DNA of 64,000 nucleotides. It comes from a virus (Duplodnaviria > Heunggongvirae > Uroviricota > Caudoviricetes). Shown piece after piece: positions 14,734-63,680 of the stretch. A program made the position numbers and the translations under genes. The stretch is taken from IMG/VR virus record IMGVR_UViG_3300013121_000002, positions 43,976 through 107,975 of that record, one strand, 5' to 3'. Below the pieces are notes generated by a model that saw only the letters and a list, made by a program, of their open reading frames with translations, did no database searches and was not told the DNA's origin. How positions within the stretch are numbered: the first letter of the stretch is position 1; every line of letters begins with the position of its first letter.

Positions 14734-14969
14734 CCCTCGACTGGCGTCCCATCCGGGTTGAAGAACAGGCCCACTTCCTCGCCGGGCACCGGCTTCTCAA
14801 GCGGCAGCAGGCGCTCGGGCTCGTCGAGGTGTTTGCCTGCCTCGATCTCGTCGGCGATCTCGTGCGCCGTGGCGCTCTCGCGCGTGCGGCGGCGCATGTA
14901 GTTGGCCGCCTGCTTCCAGTCCGCCCGCAGGGACTTCGCGACCTCGCGGAACACCGGCTTGCTCATCAA
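14730..14969 (-). CDS. Hypothetical protein
   Basis: 79-aa ORF, acidic. Confidence 0.4.
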   Translation of the reverse strand: MMSKPVFREVAKSLRADWKQAANYMRRRTRESATAHEIADEIEAGKHLDEPERLLPLEKPVPGEEVGLFFNPDGTPVEG

Positions 14970-15535
14970 TCAGCATCCTCGATCAGCACGGGCAGCTTCG
15001 CCAGCAGCAGATCGTCGAACGTGACGAGGTTCATCCCCAACTGCGGCTGCGATAAGCATACCTTGGAGCGCAGATTGAGTAAGTTCGTGCCCGCTGCGTT
15101 CAGTACCACCAACGTCGGCAGCCGGTTCTGGCGCGCGATCAGCATGGGCAGCTTCTTGTAATCGTTAGCTTCGCTGCGCGCCACACCCCACACCCGCGCC
15201 AACATCCCGGTATCCCGAAACAACCCGGCGAGATCGAGCGTCTTGAGGTGCTTGCACTCGACATAGAAGCGATCCGTAAGGCGGTGGCCCTCGGGCGCGA
15301 CCGCCGAGATGTCACCCGCCTGCCGACTGAGGTTGACGCCCTTGCGCTTCGCCAGCGTAGCCCGGCCGCCGCTCATCGCCGACCGCCACAGACAATCCTC
15401 CTTCTCGCCTCCAGTGATCCACAGGGACAGGCGCTTGCACACCTCGCGCTCGAACGCGGAGCCCTTCTGCTTCCCACCACCGGACTTCACTAACCATCCT
15501 CGCGAATGAATGCTGCGAATATGATAATAGGCCAA
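14966..15535 (-). CDS. Holliday-junction resolvase, Hjc-like PD-(D/E)xK nuclease
   Basis: KGSAFEREVCKRLSLW resembles archaeal Hjc KGSAVERNIVSRL. A downstream ...ECKHLK segment is the counterpart of the Hjc E-x-K catalytic motif. Confidence 0.55.
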   Translation of the reverse strand: MAYYHIRSIHSRGWLVKSGGGKQKGSAFEREVCKRLSLWITGGEKEDCLWRSAMSGGRATLAKRKGVNLSRQAGDISAVAPEGHRLTDRFYVECKHLKTLDLAGLFRDTGMLARVWGVARSEANDYKKLPMLIARQNRLPTLVVLNAAGTNLLNLRSKVCLSQPQLGMNLVTFDDLLLAKLPVLIEDAD

Positions 15536-16401: not shown

Positions 16402-16911
16402 TTAGCTCCCGACCGGCCGCGCCCAATTCTGGCCTAGCTGTATTTTAGAGATCATAGCCTGCGTCACACCAAACCGCTCTGCCAACTCGCGCTGGAAAAC
16501 CTTACCACGCAGCAAACGAATTTGACAAACATCAGTCTCGGTTAGCTTAGCGTTACCGTTTAGCTCACCTCGCCCAAGAGTTCCATGCAGGCCCCGATCA
16601 GCATGGTTTTCTTTTGAGGTTGCCCAACGCAGATGCCACGGATTCACACAACCAGCAGCACCACGTCCACAGCTATGAGCCGCCTGATGCTTCGGCATCG
16701 GTGGTTCGCCATGAACCGAAATGCAAACGAGACGATGAACGTACTTCATCATCCCAGCGACCTTCAATACCCCGTAACCCTTCACACGCGCAAACGGCCA
16801 GATCAGGCAGTCATCCCCCTGATAAGGAAGCACCACCGTTTGGAAGTAATGATTACGCGCCGACTTCCTAGCCACCTTCAACCTATTCGTATTTAGGACG
16901 CGGTGGAGCAA
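16402..16911 (-). CDS. HNH homing-type endonuclease with a C-terminal HTH
   Basis: CLIW...GYG...HRLVC...AAHSCGRGAAGCVNPWHLRWATSKENHADR. HTH GNAKLTETDVCQIRLLRG...FGVTQAMISKI. Confidence 0.85.
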   Translation of the reverse strand: MLHRVLNTNRLKVARKSARNHYFQTVVLPYQGDDCLIWPFARVKGYGVLKVAGMMKYVHRLVCISVHGEPPMPKHQAAHSCGRGAAGCVNPWHLRWATSKENHADRGLHGTLGRGELNGNAKLTETDVCQIRLLRGKVFQRELAERFGVTQAMISKIQLGQNWARPVGS

Positions 16912-17944
16912 ACGCTAACGAAATGCTATCCCACACCGCTGTCGTCACAACGTGTACCCGCTCCAATTCCGCATTACGTTCAGGGCCGGATGGCATCTCG
17001 TCGAGCTTCTTGATGAACGCATCAACCTTGGCTTCGGTCAGCCCCAAATCCTTGAGCCTACCCACGTCAGTCAGCCAATCAAGGCTGGCAACGTAGTCGT
17101 CTATGCCGTAAGCAAAACGAATGTTGAAGTCGCATTCAAGGAACGGCGTGTTGACCTTGTTCTTCTTCGCCTTGGCCTTGACCTGAATGCCGGTGACCCG
17201 CTTCACCTTGTTGATCGTCCGCGTCAACTGCTTGAGATGAGCCAGCCAGACAATATGCGTGGCGTAGAAATCAAGCGCCTTGCCGCCCGTCCGGGTGTGC
17301 TTCTCGCCCATCGTGAAGCCGATCTTGTCACGGACCTGCGAGATCACCATGACGTGAATTTTGGTCGCACCCAACTCGCGTATCAGCTTGCGAAACAATT
17401 CGCCCATCATCTTCGGCTTCTCACCGCCGAAGGTCGCCTCGCCAACCTTGCGCGCCATTTCCGCATCCGACGAAATGGCATCCAGCGAATCAATGATGTA
17501 GAGGCCGGGCTGACCCGATTCCTTGGCCTGTTCAATACAAGCCATCATGTCGTTGAACACATCCTCGACGGTATCCCACCGCGAGCCCACGCCCTCCGGG
17601 CCGAAGTCCACTCGATCCACTGGCAGACCGAGCGTAACGGCGTAGCCCTCATCGAACGCCGCTTCAGCTTCGCGATACCAGATATGCCCATCAGGAAACT
17701 GCCGGGCGAAGTTTGCCGTCGCTTCGATGGCGAGGAGTGTCTTGCCGCTCGAACGGTCACCGACGATGTTCGAGACGCGACCAAGCGGCCAACCACCGCC
17801 GAGGACACAATCGAGCAGGGTGCATCCGGTGCGAATGAATTGCAGCGGCTCCTGCTTGAAATAGATCGGAACCAGCTTCTCCTCTGGCTCCTCGACCGCC
17901 ACCTTCTTGCGCGCCACCATCAATGTCCCCTGACTGCAAACCAA
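16883..17944 (-). CDS. RecA-superfamily recombination ATPase (Sak4/RadA/KaiC-like)
   Basis: Walker A VGDRSSGKTLLA. Walker B LYIIDSLDAI. RecA-fold L2-like region. Confidence 0.75.
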   Translation of the reverse strand: MVCSQGTLMVARKKVAVEEPEEKLVPIYFKQEPLQFIRTGCTLLDCVLGGGWPLGRVSNIVGDRSSGKTLLAIEATANFARQFPDGHIWYREAEAAFDEGYAVTLGLPVDRVDFGPEGVGSRWDTVEDVFNDMMACIEQAKESGQPGLYIIDSLDAISSDAEMARKVGEATFGGEKPKMMGELFRKLIRELGATKIHVMVISQVRDKIGFTMGEKHTRTGGKALDFYATHIVWLAHLKQLTRTINKVKRVTGIQVKAKAKKNKVNTPFLECDFNIRFAYGIDDYVASLDWLTDVGRLKDLGLTEAKVDAFIKKLDEMPSGPERNAELERVHVVTTAVWDSISLAFAPPRPKYE

Positions 17945-18306
17945 ACCAATTGCCCGCGCGCCGAAACACCGGGCCGCTTGATCGCCTCTACCTGCCGTAT
18001 GTCCGACTCCTCAATTCGGATCGGCACGCCGTGCTTATCGCGAAGTTCAATCAGCCGCTTATCCCATAGCGGCCGGAACCGCGGCGATACCGACGCCTTG
18101 GCGATCTTCGGATCGCGCTCATGCAAATCAGCAAATACATCATCCCACGTCCCGCCGCGCTGGCCCCGTGCCATCAGCACATCGAGCACCAGCTTTTCCA
18201 TGTGAGGCAACGCATCATCCACCGACTGAGCAGCGTTGTGACTGGTGCGCGGGTCGCTATTGCGTGCCAGCGCCCGAGAACGGGTCGGTCGGTCGAAGAG
18301 TCCCAT
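17920..18306 (-). CDS. Hypothetical protein
   Basis: 128-aa ORF. Confidence 0.4.
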   Translation of the reverse strand: MGLFDRPTRSRALARNSDPRTSHNAAQSVDDALPHMEKLVLDVLMARGQRGGTWDDVFADLHERDPKIAKASVSPRFRPLWDKRLIELRDKHGVPIRIEESDIRQVEAIKRPGVSARGQLVWFAVRGH

Positions 18307-18339
18307 CGCTCGTTCCCCTTCGACCGACCTCCCCGGTAG

Positions 18340-19692
18340 TCAGCCGCCGCGACGGCCCCTCAGACTATCAAGCTGATCCTTGGCCGACTGCGAAGCATCG
18401 CCGACAGCGTCATCAGCTACGCGACGCCGGGGCGGTGCATCATCATCGTCAGCAGCCCGACGACGAGGCGGGGCATCGTCAGCGTCATCAGCCGGACGGC
18501 GACGTGGGGCGTCGTCATCGTCAGCCGGACGCCGCCGCGGCGGGGCGTCATCGTCATCAGCCGGACGACGCCGCGGTGGAGCGTCATCATCGTCAACAGC
18601 CCGACGACGGGGCGGCGCGTCGTCATCGTCGTAGCCACGCGGGCGACGGCGGTCATCGTCGTCGTCAGCCGGACGACGCCGCGGCGGTGCGTCGTCATCA
18701 TCAGCCGGACGGCGGCGAGGCGGGGCATCATCCTCATCGGCCGGACGGCGGCGCGAAGAACGCTCATCGACCTCATCGTCAACCGGACGACGGCGAGGAG
18801 GTGCGTCATCCTCGTCAACCCGGCGACGCGAGCGTGCGGCGCGTTCGTCGATCTCATCGTCATCGCGGCGGCTACCGCGGCGGTCATCATCGTCGTCACG
18901 GCGGCGATTACCGCGGCGGTCATCATCGTCGTCATCCCGGCGCGAAGAAACGAGCGGACGACGGTCATCATAATCGTCATCGCCGCCACGGCGCTCGACC
19001 TTGCCGTACAGAACCGCCTCCAAATAGTCGGCGGGGTAGTAGTGCAGGATGCTCGGTAGCGGATGGGCCATGATGTATTCCATCCACTGATCGTACCGCT
19101 CAGGCTTCGTCGAGAGCGGCGACGGGTCACGGTCGAACTCGACTGCCGTGTATTTCGTTCGCAGCTTCGTGCCAGCGCGGTTCATGTTCAGGTCGTACCC
19201 CTTGTCAGGGTGATCGAACGGCAGCAATGCATTGCTGCGCTTATCGATGGCGCGGTCGTTGACCTCCTTGAACAGCGTGCGAGGCAGCGACCAGACCTGC
19301 GGACCATCGCGCTGCGCATCGCGGTCGATGATCCAAGCGAGCGCCCGATACTGGGGCTTCAGCTTCTTGCGCTCGTCGGCGTCGGTCGAGCGTAGGGAAG
19401 CATTGCAGATCGGGCACTCCTCGTTGCGCATCTGGAGACAGAGATACGTCGCCGCTTCCGGCCCGATGTCGTAGTGCAGGTTGACGCCGATCTCCCAGTT
19501 GTTGCCGTACTTTTCAACGTCATCCCACGTTCCCGGCAGCACACGCAGACGATTCTCACCTTCCTTCGGTTTCCAAATCAGGACGGCGGGATCGACGTAG
19601 CTGTCGAAATTCCCGCCGCGCGCTTCATTCACTCGACGACGAACGTCATCGACCGTGCGGTTTTCACCGCGATAGACAAAACCCTTCACCAT
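18340..19692 (-). CDS. Zn-binding N-domain protein (possible gp32-like ssDNA-binding protein) with a long C-terminal tail of DDDDAPPRRRPA tandem repeats
   Basis: The N-terminal ~250 aa are globular with CLQMRNEECPICNASL. The C-terminal ~200 aa are roughly 12 copies of a 12-aa acidic/basic repeat. Location within the replication module. Confidence 0.5.
   Translation of the reverse strand: MVKGFVYRGENRTVDDVRRRVNEARGGNFDSYVDPAVLIWKPKEGENRLRVLPGTWDDVEKYGNNWEIGVNLHYDIGPEAATYLCLQMRNEECPICNASLRSTDADERKKLKPQYRALAWIIDRDAQRDGPQVWSLPRTLFKEVNDRAIDKRSNALLPFDHPDKGYDLNMNRAGTKLRTKYTAVEFDRDPSPLSTKPERYDQWMEYIMAHPLPSILHYYPADYLEAVLYGKVERRGGDDDYDDRRPLVSSRRDDDDDDRRGNRRRDDDDDRRGSRRDDDEIDERAARSRRRVDEDDAPPRRRPVDDEVDERSSRRRPADEDDAPPRRRPADDDDAPPRRRPADDDDDRRRPRGYDDDDAPPRRRAVDDDDAPPRRRPADDDDAPPRRRPADDDDAPRRRPADDADDAPPRRRAADDDDAPPRRRVADDAVGDASQSAKDQLDSLRGRRGG
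18420..18900. repeat. Tandem 36-bp coding repeats (about 12 copies)
   Basis: Repeated gccggacgacgccgcggcggggcgtcatcgtcatca-like units. On the minus strand they encode ADDDDAPPRRRP. Confidence 0.7.
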
Positions 19693-19741: not shown

Positions 19742-20257
19742 TTACGAGCGGGGTGCCGCTACACTTCCTGCATGGCGCGATCCCCGTTCGATGGTGAGGT
19801 TGCCGTATTCGGCCAACCGTATCGCCACCAACTCCCGCAGCATGAAGGAACGTTGATGATACGCCTCTTTCAGGGCTAACCACAAGTCCGCCGTGCGACG
19901 CCTATCTAACAGTTTTCGCTGTGCTTTTTGAATAGCAGGATCGTTCTGCATCAACTGCGCGATCCGCCCCTCGGTCGGGCGGCCACCCTCATCCTTGAGG
20001 CTGTCACGAATCTCCAGACTGACCGCCGCCTCCTTCTCGTCGAGGTACAGCTTGGCAGCATCCCGGTCGGCGAGCGCGGAGACGTGCGCCTCGGCGACTT
20101 TGCGGTAAAGCTCAGGCTGCTCGATCAGGGCTTGGTCCAGCCGGTTCTCATTGATCGCCAGCCGGTTCCGCAACCAGACCATGAGCGGGTCATCCTCCGG
20201 GTCCGCGGCAACTGGTGGCGTGACGGGCTCCTCAGTCAGGCGCTTGCGATCAACCAT
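19742..20257 (-). CDS. Hypothetical protein (N-terminus MVDRKRLTEEP)
   Basis: 171-aa ORF. Confidence 0.45.
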   Translation of the reverse strand: MVDRKRLTEEPVTPPVAADPEDDPLMVWLRNRLAINENRLDQALIEQPELYRKVAEAHVSALADRDAAKLYLDEKEAAVSLEIRDSLKDEGGRPTEGRIAQLMQNDPAIQKAQRKLLDRRRTADLWLALKEAYHQRSFMLRELVAIRLAEYGNLTIERGSRHAGSVAAPRS

Positions 20258-20260
20258 GAC

Positions 20261-21304
20261 CTACCTCCCCAACAGCAGCTTGCCGCACGCCAGCACCAGT
20301 GGCGACGCGCCGTCGAAATGATTGAACGGCTGCGAGAACGCATCGAGGATTTCGAGCGCCCGGCCGACCTGCGCTTCCGCCGTCGCGGTCAGCGCAATCT
20401 TGGTCATATACGCCCGCACGACGTGACGCACCGATTCCGGGTCCACCGCAGCCTCACTTAGCTCGGCGAGCATCCGCTGAACGTCCGACCAGCGCCCGCG
20501 GCTGTTGAGCAGGCGGGCAAGCTCGAATGCCTGCGGCGCGGTCGCTGCCGAATGCAGCAGTTCACCTGCCTCCTCCTTATTCGTTACGTCAGCGCAAAGC
20601 GTGAGGTTGGACAGCGCCTGCCGCGGCGAACCATGCGCCTCCCTGACACACAAGCCCACCACGTCGTCGGTCGCCGCCAGCTTCTCGGCGTCCACAATGC
20701 CGTACAACAGGTCCGCCAAATCCTGCTTGCCGACCGGCTTGAGATCGAGGCGCATACACCGCGTGCGGATCGTCTCGGGCACCTTGGTCGGCTCCGTGGT
20801 GCAGAGCATCCAGTAGACGTGCTCTGGGGGCTCCTCGGTAGCCTTCAGGATCGACTTCCATGCCTGCGCCGACAGAGCGTGGCATTCGTCAATCAACACC
20901 ACCTTGATGCGGCCCTCGCCGAGCGGGAGATAGCGCAGCCCATCCATCACATCGCGCATGTTCTCGATGCCGGTGTGCGTCGCCGCGTCGATCTCGATGA
21001 GACTGCCCGGCAGGCAACCCAACTCGGCTGCCGCGATCCGGGCCAACGTCGTCTTGCCGGTGCCGGACGGGCCGGTGAATAGAAGCGTCTTGGCTAACCC
21101 CTTCGCTATCGCGCGCTCCAGCGCCTTCACCACCGCATCCTGACCAACCACCTGCGAGAACTTCGTCGGCCGGTACTTCGTTATCAAACCATCAGACATT
21201 GCCGCGCTTCCATGTTGAGGTGAATGTTCCGGCTGCTTCCATCTTATCCCACGCCCGACCCCATGACGCCTCGACCGTAATGGGCACCACGCGCGCCCAC
21301 TCAA
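20261..21304 (-). CDS. AAA+ clamp-loader ATPase (DnaX/RFC-like)
   Basis: Walker A FTGPSGTGKTTLARIAA. Walker B VVLIDECHALS. Sensor and SRC-like regions. Confidence 0.8.
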   Translation of the reverse strand: MSGRAWCPLRSRRHGVGRGIRWKQPEHSPQHGSAAMSDGLITKYRPTKFSQVVGQDAVVKALERAIAKGLAKTLLFTGPSGTGKTTLARIAAAELGCLPGSLIEIDAATHTGIENMRDVMDGLRYLPLGEGRIKVVLIDECHALSAQAWKSILKATEEPPEHVYWMLCTTEPTKVPETIRTRCMRLDLKPVGKQDLADLLYGIVDAEKLAATDDVVGLCVREAHGSPRQALSNLTLCADVTNKEEAGELLHSAATAPQAFELARLLNSRGRWSDVQRMLAELSEAAVDPESVRHVVRAYMTKIALTATAEAQVGRALEILDAFSQPFNHFDGASPLVLACGKLLLGR

Positions 21305-23777
21305 ACGGAACGTCGAGCATGATGTCGATTACCTTCTCGGCGACGATGCCGACGCGATCCTCACGGACACGGAAGAATGTGAGGTCATCGTGAATCTGGA
21401 CCTCGGGCTGTAGCTCGGGGTCGCCGGTTTCGGAGAGCCGACACATTGCGTCCATGACGATCTCGGCCGCAAGAGACTGGACCGGAGAATTGCACACCTT
21501 GTTGACACTCATCGGCCCGCGGCGACGGCGACCAACCAGTGTCTCGACGTAACCATTAGCCCGGTAGAAGCGCATGAGACGATCCTGCCAATCCTTGACG
21601 CCGCTGAACTGTTCCCAAAACGCATCGAAGTGCGGAGCCAGCACCTTCTCGGGGATGCTAAGAAAACCAGCCGCCGATTTGAGCGACGCACCAAAAAACA
21701 GCGGGAACGTCCACTGGTTCTTGATGTCGGTGCGGAACGCCTTGAGCGCCGCCTTGTCGCCAAGGAACGCCTCGCCGCCGATCCGTTCAGGGTAAGCCTG
21801 CGCCAGTCGCTGCGCCCACTCACCATGCACATCGTAATTATTCCACAGCGCGTCGCAGAACCGCTTGTCATGCGTATACATCGCGATCACGCGCGCCTCG
21901 ATCTGCCCGTAGTCCACCGAGAAGATCAGGTGCTTCGGCGGCGACTTGAGCGGACGCCGGACCTCCTTGGCCTCGTCGTCACGCTTCGGGAAGTTCTGGA
22001 GGTTGGGCGACTCACACGATATGCGCCCAGTCTCGGCGAACGTGGTGTTGAAGATCGCGTGCAGGCAGCCATCGGGCCACAGGTCCGGGCTGCCCTCTGC
22101 CATGATGTCGATGTAGGTGGACTTGCGCTTGGTCGCCTTGCGCAGCGCCAGCAAATGATTAGCAAGTGGGTGCTTGTGCTTCTCCCAAATCTGCTTGAGC
22201 GCGCCTTCCTCGACGGTTAGCTTTTCCTCCTTGGTGAACTTGTCAATCGTGTTGACCTCGGCGTACCGCCGCATCTTCTGGAAGATGTAGATCACGTCGC
22301 CAGTCGAGAGGGGATTGAACCGGCGACCCTGCTCACGCTCGAACGTCTTAACGTCATCAAGCTCAGCAATCGCCGCGGCAGCCTCGTCGATCCGGGCTTG
22401 GTACTTCGCCTGCAAGGCACCGATCTCGGACTGATCCACCGGCACGCCAAGCAACTGCGCCAGCACCATCGTCGGCACGCGCCGCAGGGCGAGCTTGTAG
22501 GCGTAGCCCAGCCCCTCATCGTAAATGACCTGCCACTGCTCCTCGTAGAGCCCGGCGTGGTACTTGGCATCGAGGCCGTTGTAGCGAAGCACCACGTCAA
22601 GCGGTGTGAACTCCAGCCGCAGCCGGTCCACATTTGATATTTTCTTGAGGTTGAAGCCGAAGTAGTTCTGGACCAAGAACTCCAACGAGAACGCGCCGGG
22701 GCGCATCTTGCCGCGCCGCTCGTCAATGATCGCCGCCTGCGACTGGCTATCGCCCCATCGCCCGGCGCGGATCAAATCCTTACCGAAAAAGAACCCGGTC
22801 CACTCCAACTCGAACGCGAGGTTGTGGACCGCCTTGACCGCCGTAGCGGTGCGCAGGAAGTTGCGCCAGATGTCGGTCAGCCGGGCACGCTGCTCAGCCG
22901 TCCACATCGAGCCCGGATGGTCGAACGGAAACGCAATGGCGCTATTGCGATCACCTACCGACGCCGACAGCAGCTTCGCTTGGCTGTCATACGGACGAAG
23001 CCGGTTGGTTTCATAATCAATTCCGATCACATCCAAACCACCATAAGCCGCCAGCGAACGCTCGATCCGCTCCAAATCGGCTTCACCGTTCTCCCCGGTG
23101 ATGATGGTAATGTCCCTAAGCGCGCGGGCTCGGTTATGCGGCTCTGGCACTGGCAGCCCGCGATCCACAGCCTCGAACGCCCGCTTCATGTCGAAGCCGA
23201 GCATTCGTTCATCCTCGCTGCCGGTACGACGATAATCGGTGTCGTCGTCACGACGCCGCTGGATGAGGTAGTTCGCGTCGAACATTGGATAGAACCAGCA
23301 TTTGTGGCTGCCGATCTGGACCGGCATACGCCGACCGCGCCACAAATGAATGCCGCTGAAACCACTAACCCATTTCAGCGGCACCTCACCAAAGCCGAAG
23401 ATCGCCTCGGGCTTGGTCGCCTCGATGTCCCGGATGATCGACGGACGACATGCCTCCAACGCAGCCCAATCAGGCGACTTGCCGCGACCGGGCCATGAGC
23501 GCGCGACGTAGTTCCACCGCAGGTACTCGTCAGCCCACGACGGAATATGCTGACGAATTAACCAACTCGACGGCGAGGTGAAGTGCCCGTCTGCCTGCAC
23601 GTCCATCTTCTTGGGCGCTTCGCCCAGCATGTAGATGAGCGGCTTGCTGGTCCCGGTCGGCTCTAGTCGTCCGGGCTGCTGGTTCAGCGGGCATATCTTG
23701 CATTCGAGGCTGTGCAGCAGCGCAAGCTCGCCAGTCTCGTTGTCCGTGGGCTCACCCCGCGCAAACAATAAGCCCAT
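21192..23777 (-). CDS. polA: Family A DNA polymerase (PolI-like) with an N-terminal 3'-5' exonuclease region
   Basis: 861 aa. Motif A VDYGQIEARVIAMYTHD. Motif C QIHDDLTFF. O-helix-like region. Confidence 0.9.
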   Translation of the reverse strand: MGLLFARGEPTDNETGELALLHSLECKICPLNQQPGRLEPTGTSKPLIYMLGEAPKKMDVQADGHFTSPSSWLIRQHIPSWADEYLRWNYVARSWPGRGKSPDWAALEACRPSIIRDIEATKPEAIFGFGEVPLKWVSGFSGIHLWRGRRMPVQIGSHKCWFYPMFDANYLIQRRRDDDTDYRRTGSEDERMLGFDMKRAFEAVDRGLPVPEPHNRARALRDITIITGENGEADLERIERSLAAYGGLDVIGIDYETNRLRPYDSQAKLLSASVGDRNSAIAFPFDHPGSMWTAEQRARLTDIWRNFLRTATAVKAVHNLAFELEWTGFFFGKDLIRAGRWGDSQSQAAIIDERRGKMRPGAFSLEFLVQNYFGFNLKKISNVDRLRLEFTPLDVVLRYNGLDAKYHAGLYEEQWQVIYDEGLGYAYKLALRRVPTMVLAQLLGVPVDQSEIGALQAKYQARIDEAAAAIAELDDVKTFEREQGRRFNPLSTGDVIYIFQKMRRYAEVNTIDKFTKEEKLTVEEGALKQIWEKHKHPLANHLLALRKATKRKSTYIDIMAEGSPDLWPDGCLHAIFNTTFAETGRISCESPNLQNFPKRDDEAKEVRRPLKSPPKHLIFSVDYGQIEARVIAMYTHDKRFCDALWNNYDVHGEWAQRLAQAYPERIGGEAFLGDKAALKAFRTDIKNQWTFPLFFGASLKSAAGFLSIPEKVLAPHFDAFWEQFSGVKDWQDRLMRFYRANGYVETLVGRRRRGPMSVNKVCNSPVQSLAAEIVMDAMCRLSETGDPELQPEVQIHDDLTFFRVREDRVGIVAEKVIDIMLDVPFEWARVVPITVEASWGRAWDKMEAAGTFTSTWKRGNV

Positions 23778-23805: not shown

Positions 23806-24936
23806 CTACGACGACACCGCTACGAGGAACAACCAATCGTCACCGCCACGCATCACGGCGGCCGATGATCCAAACGCAAACGAATCAGCCTCGCTCAGTG
23901 CGCCCAGCACCTCGGCAGCATTCAGCTTGATCGTCAACGGCGGCCATTCACCAGCCAGCTTGAACTGCTCGGCAAGATCGCCGGTCGAGTAGTTACCGAC
24001 CATCCGCAAGAGTGTGGGATCATCCGCCGCCACCGCAAACGAAACAAAAGGATCAGCGCCGTTGGCAACGATCACCGCCCGCGACAGGGCTTCGTCCAGT
24101 CCATCAGGCAGCGCCAGAAACGACGATAATTTGTTTGCCTCGGCCACCTTGTTGCGGACCAGCTTGGGAAGCTCGTGCATGGTCGAGACATCAAGCCGAT
24201 TGTGGAAGAACTCAACGCCCGCCGTCGTCGCCACCAAGCACTTTGACGGAAAGTACAGCCGGTCGCCGGGCTCGCACTCCTCGGCGACGCTCTCAGCGAA
24301 CAGCCGTGACAGCACGGTTGGGGCAATCTCGGGCACCACATCCATCGCCACCCGGATTTCCATGAGCGTTTTGGAGTCCGTCGTATAGAGCGCGACGCCG
24401 CCCTTGATCGGGAACAGCGACACGCCACGGTGCTCGACCTGATCCGTCGTGCCACGCTGCCTGAGCTTGAGCACGCGCTTGAGCGCAGACAAGAACTCCT
24501 CGGTCAATTCGAGGCTGGTCGAGGTGTCGTACTGCTTGGGGAACTGCCAGTAGAAGCGCGATAGCGGTCGCGTCGCAAGCGAGGACCGTGAGCGGGCGAA
24601 GCGAACGATCAGATCATCATTCGCTTGGTTCAAACGAACGTCGCCAGCCTTGCTCGATTGCACCAACCCGGCGAACACCAAACCATCGACACCGCAGTTC
24701 AAGCCGGTGTCGAACACGACCCGGACGCCGAAATCGCCATTGTAGGCTGACAGGTGCGTCCCGGTAAACCAAAACTGACCCAATTCCCGAGCGAGTGGAC
24801 CTTTGGTGCCTAGTGCAGGCATAGCCAACTCGACGACGCGTGTGAGAATTTCACGAGGGAACTTACCGCCCGGCTCGACCGACGATTTCGTTTCCTCGAC
24901 GCGCCTGCGCACCGCAGCTTCGACCATCACAACCAC
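23806..24936 (-). CDS. DNA polymerase sliding clamp (beta-like), putative
   Basis: 376 aa, three-domain size class. Sits between the polA and clamp-loader neighbourhood. No strong motif, so this is a synteny/size call. Confidence 0.4.
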   Translation of the reverse strand: MVVMVEAAVRRRVEETKSSVEPGGKFPREILTRVVELAMPALGTKGPLARELGQFWFTGTHLSAYNGDFGVRVVFDTGLNCGVDGLVFAGLVQSSKAGDVRLNQANDDLIVRFARSRSSLATRPLSRFYWQFPKQYDTSTSLELTEEFLSALKRVLKLRQRGTTDQVEHRGVSLFPIKGGVALYTTDSKTLMEIRVAMDVVPEIAPTVLSRLFAESVAEECEPGDRLYFPSKCLVATTAGVEFFHNRLDVSTMHELPKLVRNKVAEANKLSSFLALPDGLDEALSRAVIVANGADPFVSFAVAADDPTLLRMVGNYSTGDLAEQFKLAGEWPPLTIKLNAAEVLGALSEADSFAFGSSAAVMRGGDDWLFLVAVSS

Positions 24937-25030: not shown

Positions 25031-26113
25031 TTAGCGACCGCTGGTAGCGACCTCGATGTGGCCGTTGTGACGGAACCACCAGAGAAACTGCCGCGAAACA
25101 CCACTCGCGAGCGCGTCGCTCACCTTCATGCCCTTGCGGAGCTTCGCGAACTCGTTGAAGCGATCCGAGCCGTCGCGATACGGATTTCCCTTCACGACGA
25201 TCTTGAGCTTCGCGTTGTCCGGGAAGTCGGTCGCCTTCCGTCCGCGCTTGCCGCCAGTCGGCAACGCCGTTGCAGCCTTGCGGGCCGGGGCCTTCGCAAC
25301 AGCAGCCGCCTTGCCGCGGGCCGGGGCCTTCGCAGCGGCCTTCGCAGGGGCCTTCGCCGCAGCCTTGCCGCGGGCCGGGGCCTTCGCAGCAGCAGCAGCC
25401 TTGCCGCGGGCCGGGGCCTTCGCGGCGGCCTTCGCAGGAACCTTCGCAGCAGCCTTCGCCGGGGCCTTCGCAGCGGCCTTCGCAGGAGCCTTCGCAGCGG
25501 CGGCCTTGCCACGGGCCGGGGCCTTCGCGGCGGCAGCAGCCTTGCCGCGGGCCGGGGCCTTCGCGGCGGCAGCAGCCTTGCCACGGGCCGGGGCCTTCGC
25601 AGCGGCCTTCGCGGCGGCCTTCGCAGGGGCCTTCGGTGCAGCAGGGGCCTTCGGTGCAGCAGCCTTCGCAGCCCGCGGAGCACGCTTCGGGGCCGTCGTC
25701 TCGACCTCCGTAGTCACAGTCGCATCCATAGTTCCAACTCCTTCTGCGGACGATCCAGCATCAGCATCGACCGCGGTTACATCATCAGCACCACCTCCCG
25801 TCTCCTCGACTTCAGCAGCACCAGTTTCCTGCCCGGCATCGCCGGGCTCGTCAGCAACGATCCGCCCGGAACCAACAGGCACCTCGTCGGGGAAAGCCGG
25901 AAGCGGCGTATTCCCGGACGACTTCTTGTTGTCCTCGACCACGTCTGTCGCCGCATTCAACCACTCCTGCGCCTCGCGGCTCAGTGTTTTCCATGCGTCG
26001 TCGTCGATGATCTGACCTGCGCTGAAAATGCGGAGCTTCAACGCCTGATCCGTCTCCCCGTCCTTGCGCTCAATCTTGAGCTTCGACAGGAACTCACCAA
26101 GCAAAGCACTCAT
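25031..26113 (-). CDS. Histone H1-like / AlgP-like Ala-Lys repeat DNA-binding protein with globular N- and C-terminal domains
   Basis: The central ~140 aa are made of KAAAKAPARGKAAAAA-type repeats. The C-terminal part KLKIVVKGNPYRDGSDRFNEFAKLRKGMKVSDALASG is globular. Confidence 0.6.
   Translation of the reverse strand: MSALLGEFLSKLKIERKDGETDQALKLRIFSAGQIIDDDAWKTLSREAQEWLNAATDVVEDNKKSSGNTPLPAFPDEVPVGSGRIVADEPGDAGQETGAAEVEETGGGADDVTAVDADAGSSAEGVGTMDATVTTEVETTAPKRAPRAAKAAAPKAPAAPKAPAKAAAKAAAKAPARGKAAAAAKAPARGKAAAAAKAPARGKAAAAKAPAKAAAKAPAKAAAKVPAKAAAKAPARGKAAAAAKAPARGKAAAKAPAKAAAKAPARGKAAAVAKAPARKAATALPTGGKRGRKATDFPDNAKLKIVVKGNPYRDGSDRFNEFAKLRKGMKVSDALASGVSRQFLWWFRHNGHIEVATSGR
25260..25690. repeat. 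Coding tandem repeats (Ala/Lys-rich, about 36-48-bp units)
   Basis: Repeated gccttcgcagcggccttcgcaggggccttcgc-like units. Confidence 0.65.
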
Positions 26114-31849: not shown

Positions 31850-31995
31850 GCTCGACCATAGCTCACCGCGCCTGACCTAGCCTAGCCAGACCCCACCCGA
31901 CCACACCGTACCAAACCAAACCTGACCACACCCTACCGGACCCGACCGGACCATGCCGGACCTCACACTACCTAGCCCGACCTCACCCAGCCTAT

Positions 31996-32831: not shown

Positions 32832-32877
32832 CTATTGATTTCCCTATACAGGTTACGCCATATGACGAACTGCTAAC

Positions 32878-32962
32878 CAAACGCCATAGGCATAGTGCCG
32901 TAGGTAGGTTAGCAACTTGCTAACCAAACGCCATAGGCATGGTGCCGTAGGCAGGTTAGCAA
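32878..32962. promoter_or_regulatory. Two tandem ~44-bp palindromic operator-like repeats in a divergent promoter region
   Basis: ttgctaaccaaacgccataggcat(a/g)gtgccgtagg(t/c)aggttagcaa twice. Each has a 9-bp inverted repeat TTGCTAACC/GGTTAGCAA. Confidence 0.55.
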
Positions 32963-32982: not shown

Positions 32983-33453
32983 GTGGCTACTGCAAGAAAG
33001 CCGAAGGCTGCGCCTCAAAACGCAACGCCGGAACCGAAGCCCACCGCCAAGCCGCATCGGCAGCAGGTGGACAAATCGCGGATCATTCCGCTCCCGACCA
33101 TCCTCGAACGCAAGATCAAGTTCGGGCCAACGCTCAACGATCATGTCGAGCGTGTTCACGTCGCTCTGTACGCCAAGAGCGACGAATACCGCAAGTTCCT
33201 GTCGGCCGTCTATGACGACGACGCGGTGGAAGGCTCCCTGCGCGCCGACAACCTCGAACTCGCCCGGCTCATCCGCGACTACGCTGCGGAGAACGGCATG
33301 ACCGAAGTCGTCAAAAAGCCGGACGGCGGACAGCGCACCAAGGAATCCATCGTGAAGGCGCTCAACGTGGTGCTTCGGCGCTACGGCATCGCGCGGGAAA
33401 TCCGGCGCAACACCCTCGGCGGCGAGTACGTCGGCACCGGCAACGGCGACTAA
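32983..33453 (+). CDS. Hypothetical basic protein
   Basis: 156-aa ORF with a Lys/Pro-rich N-terminus. A GGAG RBS sits at 32970. Confidence 0.5.
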   Translation: MATARKPKAAPQNATPEPKPTAKPHRQQVDKSRIIPLPTILERKIKFGPTLNDHVERVHVALYAKSDEYRKFLSAVYDDDAVEGSLRADNLELARLIRDYAAENGMTEVVKKPDGGQRTKESIVKALNVVLRRYGIAREIRRNTLGGEYVGTGNGD

Positions 33454-43739: not shown

Positions 43740-44330
43740 AATAAGCTCAGCCTTGTCGTGAATTTGAGTTGCGAACGTGGGGGTTCAAATCCTCCCTCCC
43801 CGACCATGACGGGGAGTGCCGGAACGGTAGACGGGAGTCCCTTCGGGACTTGTTCGCTTCAAACTAAATCTATTCACGCAAGTTGAGCATTGCCGCGCCG
43901 ATCCTATCGAGGTGCGTCGGGTTCCAATTGAGAGGCGCTGGTTCAAATCCAGCCGCGCCCGCCATGTGGGGCGCGTGGTCCAGCGGAAGGGCGCTCAACA
44001 TGAAACTGATCCGACGTATTAAACGCCGAGGGTTGGGAGAAGTCGCGGTACAAGCCCCGGCAGTCTAGGCTAGTGCTGCCGGGGCACCTATCCCAGAGGT
44101 TCCAGCTTGGGGAACGGATCAGCGGCCAAGAGGTTCAAAGGCCACGGACCTGCGGGTAGCTCGACGGAGCAAAACCTGCCAACGCTGATCCAGCAATTCG
44201 TGCTCGGAGAATAGATCACCGGGGACCGAGAGGGGGTCCGCCACCTCCTGTAGAACAGCCCGGTGCAGCTTACGCCTGTCTGCACCGAGCCAAAGCCTAC
44301 CTCCCGGTGATCCCTATCAAGGGATAATCA
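43740..44330 (+). ncRNA. ORF-free region with tRNA-like fragments: two T-arm + 3' acceptor + CCA elements, each immediately followed by its complementary 5' acceptor strand (permuted tRNA-like/Y-RNA-like modules), plus a strong 10-bp hairpin
   Basis: GGGGGUUCAAAUCCUCC-CUCCCCG-A-CCA-uga-CGGGGAG at ~43768-43806. GCUGGUUCAAAUCCAGC-CGCGCCC-G-CCA-ugu-GGGCGCG at ~43925-43967. D-loop-like AACGGUAGA/AGCGG follows each. Hairpin GCCCCGGCAG/CUGCCGGGGC at ~44043-44073. Confidence 0.35.
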
Positions 44331-55018: not shown

Positions 55019-55094
55019 TCCCCGGTAGCTCAACTGGTAGAGCACCCGCCTGTTAAGCGGACGGTTGCTGGTTCGAGCCCGGCTCGGGGAGCCA
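55019..55094 (+). tRNA. tRNA-Asn (GTT) with encoded CCA
   Basis: D-arm GCTCAACTGGTAGAGC. Anticodon loop CTGTTAA. T-arm GCTGG-TTCGAGC-CCGGC. 3' end TCGGGGA-G-CCA. There is one acceptor mismatch, so tRNAscan confirmation is needed. Confidence 0.55.
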
Positions 55095-63074: not shown

Positions 63075-63680
63075 CGAACGCGTCTATCTAGCCGCCAGCC
63101 TCTGGTGTAGAGCACGGTTACTTCACACTTCCAATGTGACCAACGACCGGGTTCGTTATTTCCGAGGCGACCATCATTCCCGCAGGTCGCGGGGAGCGTC
63201 TGGTGTTCGAGCACGGCTACTTCGATTGATAATCGAGAGGTTGTTGGTTCGATCCCAATCAGGCCCCGCAAGGGACTTGTAGCTCAACTGGTAGAGCACT
63301 AAGCCGGGTTCAGCTTTCTTCCGGCGCTCCACCCCGACCTGCGGGAGTGTGTGGTGTGAGGGAGTTGGTGTTAGGTTACGGTTACTTCGGATGAAAGCTA
63401 CGGGCTCTTAACCCGTTCGCTCCATGGTGGTTCAAATCCACCAAACCGGAACCGCCTTTTCCACTCCCTCGCTCCACACACGCAGATCAATTCGAGTGGC
63501 GCGTACCCTCTGGTGCAGATCACGGGTACTTCGCCTCTGGAGCGGGAGGTCGTTGGTTCGAATCCAACCGGGTCCACCATTCTACGGGCCTGTAGCTCAG
63601 CGGTTAGAGCGCCTAACGTAACCGGGATCGTCCTTTCCGAGGATACGCCCCACTCGAATTGATTTGCATTGGCCGCCCCT
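63075..63680 (+). ncRNA. Cluster of tRNA-like / Y-RNA-like (YrlA-type) structured RNAs upstream of a Ro60-like gene
   Basis: Canonical D-arms: GTAGCTCAACTGGTAGAGC at ~63280, GTAGCTCAGCGGTTAGAGC at ~63598. T-arms with encoded CCA: GTTGGTTCGAATCCAACCGGGTCCACCA at ~63560; GGTGGTTCAAATCCACC at ~63427; GTTGGTTCGATCCCAAT at ~63244. None assembles into a colinear canonical tRNA. A tCTGGTGyAGAgCACGGyTACTTCG module repeats four times. Confidence 0.45.

Follow-up and report, generated by a model that had tools for sequence, protein, structure and literature searches.

We examined a gene on the minus strand of a 64,000-nucleotide stretch of DNA (the window), which is positions 43,976 to 107,975 of the IMG/VR virus record IMGVR_UViG_3300013121_000002 (Caudoviricetes). 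The product of 450 residues is very probably an SSB (a protein that binds single-stranded DNA) and a divergent member of the T4 gp32 family, from which we infer that it binds single-stranded DNA (ssDNA). An N-terminal arm and a core with a predicted zinc site are followed by a long tail of alternating acidic and arginine blocks and by a short basic helix at the C-terminus. Coordinates of these parts, and of the other features of the window, are collected in Table 1.

Repeat array and gp32-type core

An initial annotation of the locus had described a 36-bp DNA repeat encoding acidic/basic 12-mers, appended to a Zn-binding globular domain, and both parts of this description were borne out. Tandem Repeats Finder placed a 36-bp tandem period at 18422-18832 (11.3 copies, 71% matches) and a second 36-bp array within the proximal tail at 18857-18942; higher-order periods of 108 and 144 bp were also detected in the array with 77-81% matches, the 144-bp period at 2.3 copies and 81%. 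Upon translation, the array gives 12-residue units of the form DDDDAPPRRRPA, in which an acidic block is followed by Ala-Pro-Pro and then by an arginine block, for a net charge of about -1. Besides the nine near-perfect 12-mers there are about six degenerate acidic/arginine units, which start from residue 237, and the C-terminal end of the protein reads AKDQLDSLRGRRGG. Residues 1-235, by comparison, show nothing unusual in their make-up, with 37 acidic residues and 37 basic ones.

Two open reading frames (ORFs) overlap the gene, one on the plus strand (18168..19073) and one in another minus-strand frame (18417..19130). A PHROG search of both gave no match, and they were rejected as genes; since they lie over a repeat in 62% G+C DNA and match no PHROG, we take them as artefacts. 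A scan for promoters and terminators around the SSB gene returned nothing exceeding the shuffle expectation.

The N-terminal domain (residues 1-236) was modelled by AlphaFold2 (AF2) using 62 homologues, with a mean predicted local distance difference test score (pLDDT) of 91.1. Foldseek comparison of this model with the PDB gave six significant matches, all of them to RB69 or T4 gp32 (E 8e-9 to 2e-6, probability 1.00), and the seventh match fell to E 0.18. The named neighbours in BFVD, which holds predicted viral structures, were mostly "single-stranded DNA-binding protein" or uncharacterised. The model has the gp32-specific fold, i.e., a single OB fold with inserted subdomains, and the predicted His-Cys-Cys-Cys zinc site of the gp32 family is present in the sequence, with CLQMRNEECPICNASL (residues 85-100) falling within the motif H73-x11-C85-x7-C93-x2-C96. 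Alignment of the family to T4 gp32 (NC_000866) by hhalign was collinear across T4 residues 40-234, and paired H73, C85, C93 and C96 with the T4 zinc ligands H64, C77, C87 and C90; the T4 side was a single sequence, the probability was low (14%), and the alignment was used for residue correspondence only. Of 220 proteins in the family, 197 contain the H..C..CxxC pattern.

Taken by itself, the window protein gives modest sequence evidence. It matched PHROG 1192, "single strand DNA binding protein" (E 6e-13), and PHROG 34306, which covers its residues 3-365 (E 3e-23); the Pfam search showed no PF00436, the OB domain of bacterial SSB. All seven relatives tested against the Pfam gp32 model, including the proteins of both cultured phages described below, passed its gathering score (28.5-38.5 bits), and the window protein is homologous to such relatives with E values as low as 1e-79; to P0005, one of those that pass, it is 47% identical across 52% of its length (E 3e-72). 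On the grounds of fold, zinc ligands and homology we regard membership of the gp32 family as established, with residues 36-235 as a gp32-type OB-fold core that has a predicted His-Cys3 zinc site, and the OB-fold/SSB similarity on which the initial annotation's comparison with phage SSBs depended is present in the fold searches, the alignment to the T4 ligands, PHROG and Pfam alike.

The arm ahead of the core has conserved columns at Y7 and R20 (alignments A1 and A2), and its AF2 helix has a pLDDT of about 60-70. The hhalign match to T4 gp32 begins only at residue 45, downstream of the arm. By analogy, the arm is a candidate counterpart of the N-terminal cooperativity domain of gp32; in the T4 protein this domain, which is basic, binds to the core of its neighbour and confers cooperativity (PMC11811875).

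Charge-block tails and the basic tip in the clade

The tail, counted from residue 236 (215 aa), is 60% charged and 12% proline, with 73 acidic (D/E) and 57 basic (K/R) residues for a net charge of -16; about 91% of its acidic residues are Asp. When neutral residues were ignored, it resolved into 34 charge blocks in unbroken alternation, the acidic blocks of 4-6 residues and the arginine blocks of 3-5. Shuffles preserving the composition of the tail gave about 64 blocks (z = -5.8), so that the alternating pattern is far from chance. In the full-length AF2 model residues 236-430 had a pLDDT of 41-50 (41-46 for the proximal tail, residues 237-292) and were without secondary structure, and we describe this region as a predicted intrinsically disordered, net-acidic block polyampholyte. 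An ER/K-type single alpha-helix was considered and rejected: no helix was assigned by DSSP at residues 236-432 of the AF2 model, where the pLDDT was below 50, and the tail is not a charged single helix because its prolines and aspartates prevent one.

Relatives were collected in two ways. A word-indexed protein search yielded 74 proteins, of which P0001, from a 107,975-bp JGI contig, is identical to the window protein and the nearest non-identical protein is about 51% identical, over the core only. In addition, an exhaustive phmmer search, for which only the core served as query, covered 1.84 billion cluster representatives (clustered at 50% identity) and yielded 1897 proteins with E <= 1e-3, of which 573 had E <= 1e-30. 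Nearly all relatives from the word-indexed search have C-terminal regions of 59-299 aa that are 40-80% charged, with a net charge of 0 to -53, and their charge blocks are far fewer, thus longer, than in shuffles (z typically -3 to -10). Among the 146 best new representatives from phmmer, 131 have highly charged tails (115 of these net acidic, 89 with block z < -3), and the tails of about 10% are not highly charged. The pattern is kept while the residues drift: Arg makes up 22-100% of the basic residues of clade tails, and Asp 15-96% of the acidic ones. The order acid block-Pro(Pro)-basic block occurs 473 times in these tails versus 156 times for its reverse. Several relatives bear D/R block repeats at the N-terminus too.

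In most of the clade the charge pattern has a period of 14-20 residues. Of the 190 analysed tails with 80 residues or more, the window tail has the shortest period of those that are strongly periodic (12 residues), and ties for the most regular, with 53% self-identity at the repeat offset. Judged from these sequences, a charge-block tail is the norm for the clade. The view that a long zwitterionic tail is unusual therefore holds beside textbook SSBs but not within the protein's own clade, where relatives carry equivalent tails and where such tails are found in cultured Vibrio and Edwardsiella phages as well.

The two proteins from cultured phages, ZHS_54 of Edwardsiella phage vB_EpM_ZHS and SSP002_072 of Vibrio phage SSP002 (Mardecavirus), belong to the same clade (PHROG 34306 / 1192) with 29-37% identity in the core, and lie in the same gene order. 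In both, the tail is D/R-rich and alternating and closes with a basic motif of the ...MRRRR type; these tails are less regular than the window tail and include a helical insert of about 45 aa. ZHS_54 (456 aa) carries D/R blocks at both ends, and the SSP002_072 tail is D/R/G-rich and its zinc cysteines are missing. In cultured phages the genes of this clade are mostly annotated as hypothetical, and a few as SSB-domain or DNA-binding protein.

Three variations were seen in the clade, none of which occurs in the window protein. The helical insert, with a consensus like WDEVHELSFRKLANLVEEHRLDIDP...ELADQICE, lies in the charged tails of many members (ZHS_54, L002 5692-7062; SSP002_072, L003 4968-6107; P0019, P0026, P0031, P0038, P0042, P0046, P0047, P0051, P0060 and P0062), and a Pfam search of it gave no match; separately, one of the structural neighbours in BFVD bears the annotation "Rho termination factor, N-terminal". 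A subclade (P0021, P0034, P0039, P0040, P0043, P0053, P0056, P0057, P0061, P0063, P0065 and L003 4968-6107) lacks the three zinc cysteines and keeps the remaining core, e.g., ...SLSKMKNEKDPLAEARR...; its tails carry the basic motif and then an acidic DDD/EDED tip. Lastly, a motif DD(x)[IPLV]P[FYW], similar to the tip of bacterial SSB, is found inside or at the end of 37 of 205 tails (P0028 ends in DDDDDIPF, and P0054 and P0066 contain DDEIPF); by imitating the tip of the host's SSB, these motifs may serve to recruit enzymes of the host.

The description of the tail in the initial annotation was accurate, but it overlooked a conserved basic helix at the C-terminus. Alignment A2 ends in the consensus A-[RK]-x-x-L-x-x-L-[RK]-x-R-R, the window version of which is AKDQLDSLRGRR. 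Seven positions of this motif were scored in the last 40 residues of 220 clade proteins and in shuffled termini: at least five positions were matched in 47% of the proteins versus 4% of the shuffles (about 12-fold), and at least six in 30% versus 0.5% (about 60-fold). The end of the motif lies at a median distance of 2 residues from the C-terminus, and in just 2 proteins is the motif internal; it is also retained in clade members without highly charged tails. By these counts the tip is the best-conserved element beyond the core. The tip was also considered as a motif for beta-clamp binding (QL[SD]LF) or as a helix for membrane targeting, and both were rejected, as the consensus is without the aromatic and hydrophobic positions that such motifs require.

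We compared the repeat units at the peptide and DNA levels. Eight in-register units showed 86% amino-acid and 78% nucleotide identity, and 185 of their 226 nucleotide differences fell at third codon positions. The proportion of synonymous sites that differ between units (pS, Nei-Gojobori) was 0.64, and that of nonsynonymous sites (pN) 0.07; between the two 48-aa blocks behind the 144-bp period the values were 0.56 and 0.08. Random pairs of synonymous codons drawn with tail codon usage differ with a probability of 0.5-0.64, which means that the synonymous sites have been all but randomised. Exact direct repeats in the tail DNA reach 26 nt at most. The last expansion of the array was the duplication of a 48-aa (144-bp) block. 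From these sequence comparisons the array is old, and, because its units differ almost solely at synonymous sites, we conclude that it is kept by purifying selection on the peptide, not the DNA. For Arg and Ala, the tail and the remaining window differ in codon usage; as the units share ancestry, this difference does not count as independent evidence of selected codon scrambling, and it was not used.

Genomic cassette and other features of the window

The SSB gene lies in a cassette that runs, all on the minus strand, from a sliding clamp homologue through PolA, the clamp loader, the 171-aa ORF, SSB and the 128-aa ORF to the RecA/UvsX-like gene; primase, SNF2 helicase and DnaB-like helicase genes are found further along the window. 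The protein is thus encoded among replisome and recombination genes, as is characteristic of the gp32 type. The order PolA, clamp loader, small ORF(s), gp32-like gene and RecA recurs in L001 (an 83.7-kb metagenomic contig carrying P0005), in Edwardsiella phage vB_EpM_ZHS and in Vibrio phage SSP002, which argues that the window protein is the SSB of a conserved replication/recombination cassette. The gene had been placed between the clamp loader and the RecA-like ATPase; both do flank it, but one small ORF intervenes on each side.

Table 1. Features of the window discussed in the text, with positions, strand and supporting evidence
Feature	Position	Strand	Evidence or remark
Probable gp32-type SSB, complete coding sequence (450 aa + stop)	18340..19692	-	ORF list, ATG start
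N-terminal arm, residues 1-35 (MVKGFVYRGENRTVDDVRRRVNEARGGNFDSYVDP)	19588..19692	-	Basic, family-conserved; helix predicted at 14-24
Putative ssDNA-binding core, gp32 fold (OB fold + zinc subdomain), residues 36-235	18988..19587	-	
Zinc motif H73-x11-C85-x7-C93-x2-C96 (HYDIGPEAATYLCLQMRNEECPIC)	19405..19476	-	Regular expression and translation
Proximal degenerate tail, residues 237-292	18817..18984	-	Acidic/arginine blocks without the APP spacer, e.g., DDDDDDRRGNRRR, DDDDDRRGSRR
Main array, residues 293-426	18415..18816	-	Nine near-perfect DDDDAPPRRRPA units + two degenerate
C-terminal amphipathic basic helix (predicted), residues 433-448	18349..18396	-	AF2; tip motif AKDQLDSLRGRR = residues 437-448, 18349-18384
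128-aa ORF, between RecA-like gene and SSB	17920..18306	-	
RecA/UvsX-like recombinase	16883..17944	-	Pfam RecA E 1.2e-35; PHROG 97 "UvsX-like recombinase" E 1.5e-53
HNH endonuclease ORF	16402..16911	-	Pfam HNH_3; directly downstream of RecA-like gene
Phage PDDEXK endonuclease ORF	14966..15535	-	Near RecA-like gene
171-aa ORF, directly upstream of SSB	19742..20257	-	PHROG 1069 E 2e-16, 2058 E 1e-11 (function unknown)
Clamp-loader ATPase	20261..21304	-	Pfam DNA_pol3_delta2 E 8e-21; PHROG 5846 "clamp loader" E 6e-75
Family A DNA polymerase (PolA), 3'-5' exonuclease, N-terminal UDG-superfamily domain	21192..23777	-	Pfam DNA_pol_A E 4e-55, DNA_pol_A_exo1, UDG E 8.5e-6
376-aa ORF	23806..24936	-	26% identity, E 7e-11 to ZHS "putative DNA polymerase III beta subunit"
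360-aa ORF with about 150 aa of AKAPARGKAAAA / AKAAAKAPAK repeats	25031..26113	-	DNA repeats 25280-25662
tRNA-Asn (GTT)	55019-55094	+	Among plus-strand genes
tRNA-Gln (CTG)	63503-63579	+	Among plus-strand genes

Two of the neighbouring ORFs could be given tentative roles by sequence comparison. The 376-aa ORF had no Pfam or PHROG match, and its homologue in phage ZHS, annotated as a beta clamp, occupies the same place upstream of PolA; it is probably a divergent sliding clamp. The 171-aa ORF has homologues in the same position in the metagenomic relative L001 (43% identity, E 3e-32) and in Edwardsiella phage ZHS (E 8e-8), and a weak match to PHROG 231, "UvsY-like" (E 0.013), makes it a candidate recombination mediator. 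The clamp-loader ORF as listed starts with TTG and overlaps the end of PolA by about 110 nt; its true start is probably the internal Met of ...MSDGLITKY.... The UDG fusion of the window polymerase is also found in L001 (2877-5426), which just upstream encodes an HMUDK_hel-domain protein and a thymidylate-synthase homologue; these two genes hint at modified thymidine in the L001 phage.

The 360-aa ORF, which lies inside the replication module, encodes another repeat protein. It had no Pfam or PHROG match; its basic Ala-Lys-Pro repeats follow an acidic N-terminal half and are encoded by nested tandem arrays of 12, 24, 36, 90 and 141 bp, and they may be likened to those of histone H1 and AlgP. 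This protein might pair electrostatically with the net-acidic tail of the SSB. Further along, a 47-bp tandem repeat (32871-32962, 2.0 copies, 95% matches) lies in a divergent intergenic region that separates the minus-strand replication genes from plus-strand genes starting at 32983, and about 1 kb from it there is a 25-bp repeat (31881-31953, 2.9 copies). This region near 32.9 kb is a candidate regulatory or origin region, and a better one than the SSB array.

Proposed roles of the tail and competing explanations

We propose, with a probability of roughly 0.55, that the gene encodes a replicative and recombinational SSB of the phage whose tail is an enlarged form of the gp32 C-terminal domain (CTD) with three roles; the roles in the form given here are drawn by analogy and are put forward more tentatively, at rather under even odds. 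The acidic blocks of the tail would compete with ssDNA for the basic cleft of the core; like the acidic CTD of T4 gp32, they would in this way gate binding and make exchange faster. The blocks of opposite charge could make many weak, salt-sensitive contacts, tail to tail and tail to core, between neighbouring SSBs on ssDNA; such contacts would add cooperativity and may concentrate the SSB with its partners, possibly as far as condensation. The flexible tail would also present the C-terminal basic helix as a docking peptide to one or more partners in the replisome or recombination machinery, which is the logic of linker and tip in bacterial SSB, but with a tip of opposite charge. The multivalent protein-recruitment scaffold suggested by the initial annotation is plausible.

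The closest known system is gp32 of T4 and RB69 (PF08804), which shares fold, zinc site and genomic context with the window protein at an identity of only about 15%. In T4 gp32 the acidic CTD and ssDNA are competitors for the cleft, and the CTD also makes contact with other proteins of the replisome (PMC11811875). That tail has 48 aa, is almost purely acidic (15 acidic, 3 basic) and ends in DLDDLLNDL, whereas the window tail has 215 aa in alternating blocks (73 acidic, 57 basic) and ends in a basic Leu-x-x-Leu helix. E. coli SSB resembles the window protein in outline, with a core that binds DNA, a disordered linker of poor conservation and, at the C-terminus, a short peptide that is conserved; its linker is reported to be required for non-nearest-neighbour cooperativity and phase separation, and its terminal tip to dock partners (10.1101/2022.01.17.476650, PMC10164576; see also PMC11811875). 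The E. coli protein differs in its PF00436 OB core and its homotetrameric state, as against the gp32 type (gp32 is a monomer) without PF00436; its linker is Gly/Gln/Pro-rich and not highly charged, and its tip is acidic (DDDIPF), whereas the window tip is basic and the window tail has no Phe or DDxPF. A third comparison is with the phage SSB T7 gp2.5, whose acidic C-terminal region mediates protein contacts and competes with DNA; gp2.5 is of another fold family, and its tail is short and purely acidic, without repeats or basic blocks.

For the charge pattern itself the nearest likeness is with disordered regions of the Nopp140 and nucleolin type, in which acidic D/E tracts and K-blocks are reported to drive condensate partitioning (PMC11938373). 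The charge grammar is the same, i.e., long runs of alternating blocks in a disordered region beside a nucleic-acid-binding domain; there is no homology to the window protein, whose host is a bacterium, and the basic blocks of the window tail are Arg- and Pro-rich and do not have the serine phosphorylation logic of the nucleolar regions. A bolder proposal would be that a block-polyampholyte region with a basic docking tip replaced the simple acidic tail across this clade of about 1,900 representatives, and that it drives salt-sensitive self-association or condensation of SSB-coated ssDNA in bacteria, organising a membrane-less replication/recombination compartment as the prokaryotic-virus counterpart of the nucleolar acidic-tract/K-block grammar; this we consider unlikely.

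Several points weigh against the proposed SSB with its enlarged CTD. The net charge of the tail is weak, at about -1 per unit versus -12 over the 48 residues of the T4 CTD, which makes the strength of the tail as a DNA competitor uncertain. The window protein scored 21.6 bits (E 2.4e-4) against Pfam gp32, under the gathering score of 26.8, and phmmer with the N-terminal domain and searches with the family profile against PDB sequences did not reach gp32 and gave chance or low-complexity matches; the gp32 assignment therefore rests on fold, profile alignment and transitive homology. The C-terminal helix was predicted by AF2 at moderate confidence (pLDDT about 60) and is docked nowhere in the model. 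The idea that condensates form is extrapolated from polymer physics and eukaryotic cases, and a literature search found no biochemical or genetic work on any member of the clade.

The tail could instead be a passive, highly soluble entropic spacer or "bristle" that selection merely keeps disordered and charged, such that specific function resides in the core and the tip, and neither the block pattern nor the exact 12-mer has a specific role. The tail is without predicted structure in AF2, members of the clade differ widely in tail length (59-299 aa), in the length of the unit and in its residues, and the roughly one-tenth of representatives without a highly charged tail still keep the terminal motif, all of which would fit a spacer. 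However, in most members blockiness is far beyond composition (z -3 to -10), the acid-Pro-basic order outnumbers its reverse threefold, and the exact 12-mer is kept in the window protein despite saturated synonymous sites. Moreover, the blocks that some relatives carry at the N-terminus cannot space the tip, which argues that the blocks matter in themselves. We regard a mere spacer as improbable; were it the case, the finding would be of an ordinary divergent SSB.

Somewhat more doubtful still is that the arginine blocks form a second nucleic-acid-binding module. The tail itself would then attach to ssDNA, dsDNA or RNA, its acidic blocks would serve as built-in competitors, and at forks the SSB would be held to RNA or to duplex DNA. 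The tail contains 19 runs of two or three arginines, but each basic block is flanked by a longer acidic block, and the net negative charge of the tail, here and in 115 of the 131 highly charged relatives, disfavours net polyanion binding. The N-terminal domain of Rho termination factor is a nucleic-acid-binding module of helix-extension-helix type, and both the BFVD neighbour so annotated and the small helical insert in the tails of some relatives would favour such a module; the window protein, however, is without this insert, and the insert matches no Pfam domain.

That the array is a slippage-prone contingency locus, with a copy number that tunes or switches SSB function, is very improbable. 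A 36-bp unit is a multiple of three, so copy changes would stay in frame, tail length and unit differ between distant lineages, and there are signs of the past 144-bp block duplication. The low DNA identity between units, the randomised synonymous sites and a longest exact repeat of only 26 nt nevertheless argue against any recent homogenisation or expansion, and such DNA would be a poor substrate for slippage, with recent slippage unlikely; the initial annotation's suggestion that the array is prone to repeat-number variation thus finds no support in the DNA. Close relatives for a comparison of copy number were not found in the contig index, the IMG/VR scan or two metagenome scans, and a 9-kb query spanning the gene had no megablast match among 50,697 phage records. 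Least credible is that the repeat acts as DNA with the peptide as a by-product, e.g., as iterons of an embedded origin like those within the lambda O replication gene: there are about eleven direct repeats within a gene of the replication module, but the differences between units concentrate at third codon positions with the peptide conserved, which indicates constraint on a protein rather than on a DNA site, relatives keep the charge pattern with wholly different DNA and peptide units, and the divergent region near 32.9 kb is the better origin candidate.

The identity of the protein as an SSB is ordinary; of interest to those who study SSBs and disordered regions would be the strongly selected charge-block tail with its basic tip, which is found across the clade. 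A literature search of incomplete coverage found no description of a charge-block tail in phage SSBs, which is absence of evidence only. SSB tails set the speed of exchange on DNA and the recruitment of enzymes, and to our knowledge the model SSBs (T4 gp32, T7 gp2.5 and E. coli SSB) all have acidic tips, with linkers that are short and acidic or uncharged. A large clade shows a different, strongly selected solution for the tail, namely alternating charge blocks ending in a basic helix. There is a gain for annotation as well, given that genes of the clade are mostly filed as hypothetical, including those of the cultured Vibrio and Edwardsiella phages. If the proposed roles are true, the clade would form a natural series in length, period and charge for testing charge patterning against cooperativity, exchange and possibly condensation on ssDNA, with the window protein, given the shortest and most regular unit among the 190 tails analysed, as a natural experimental model.

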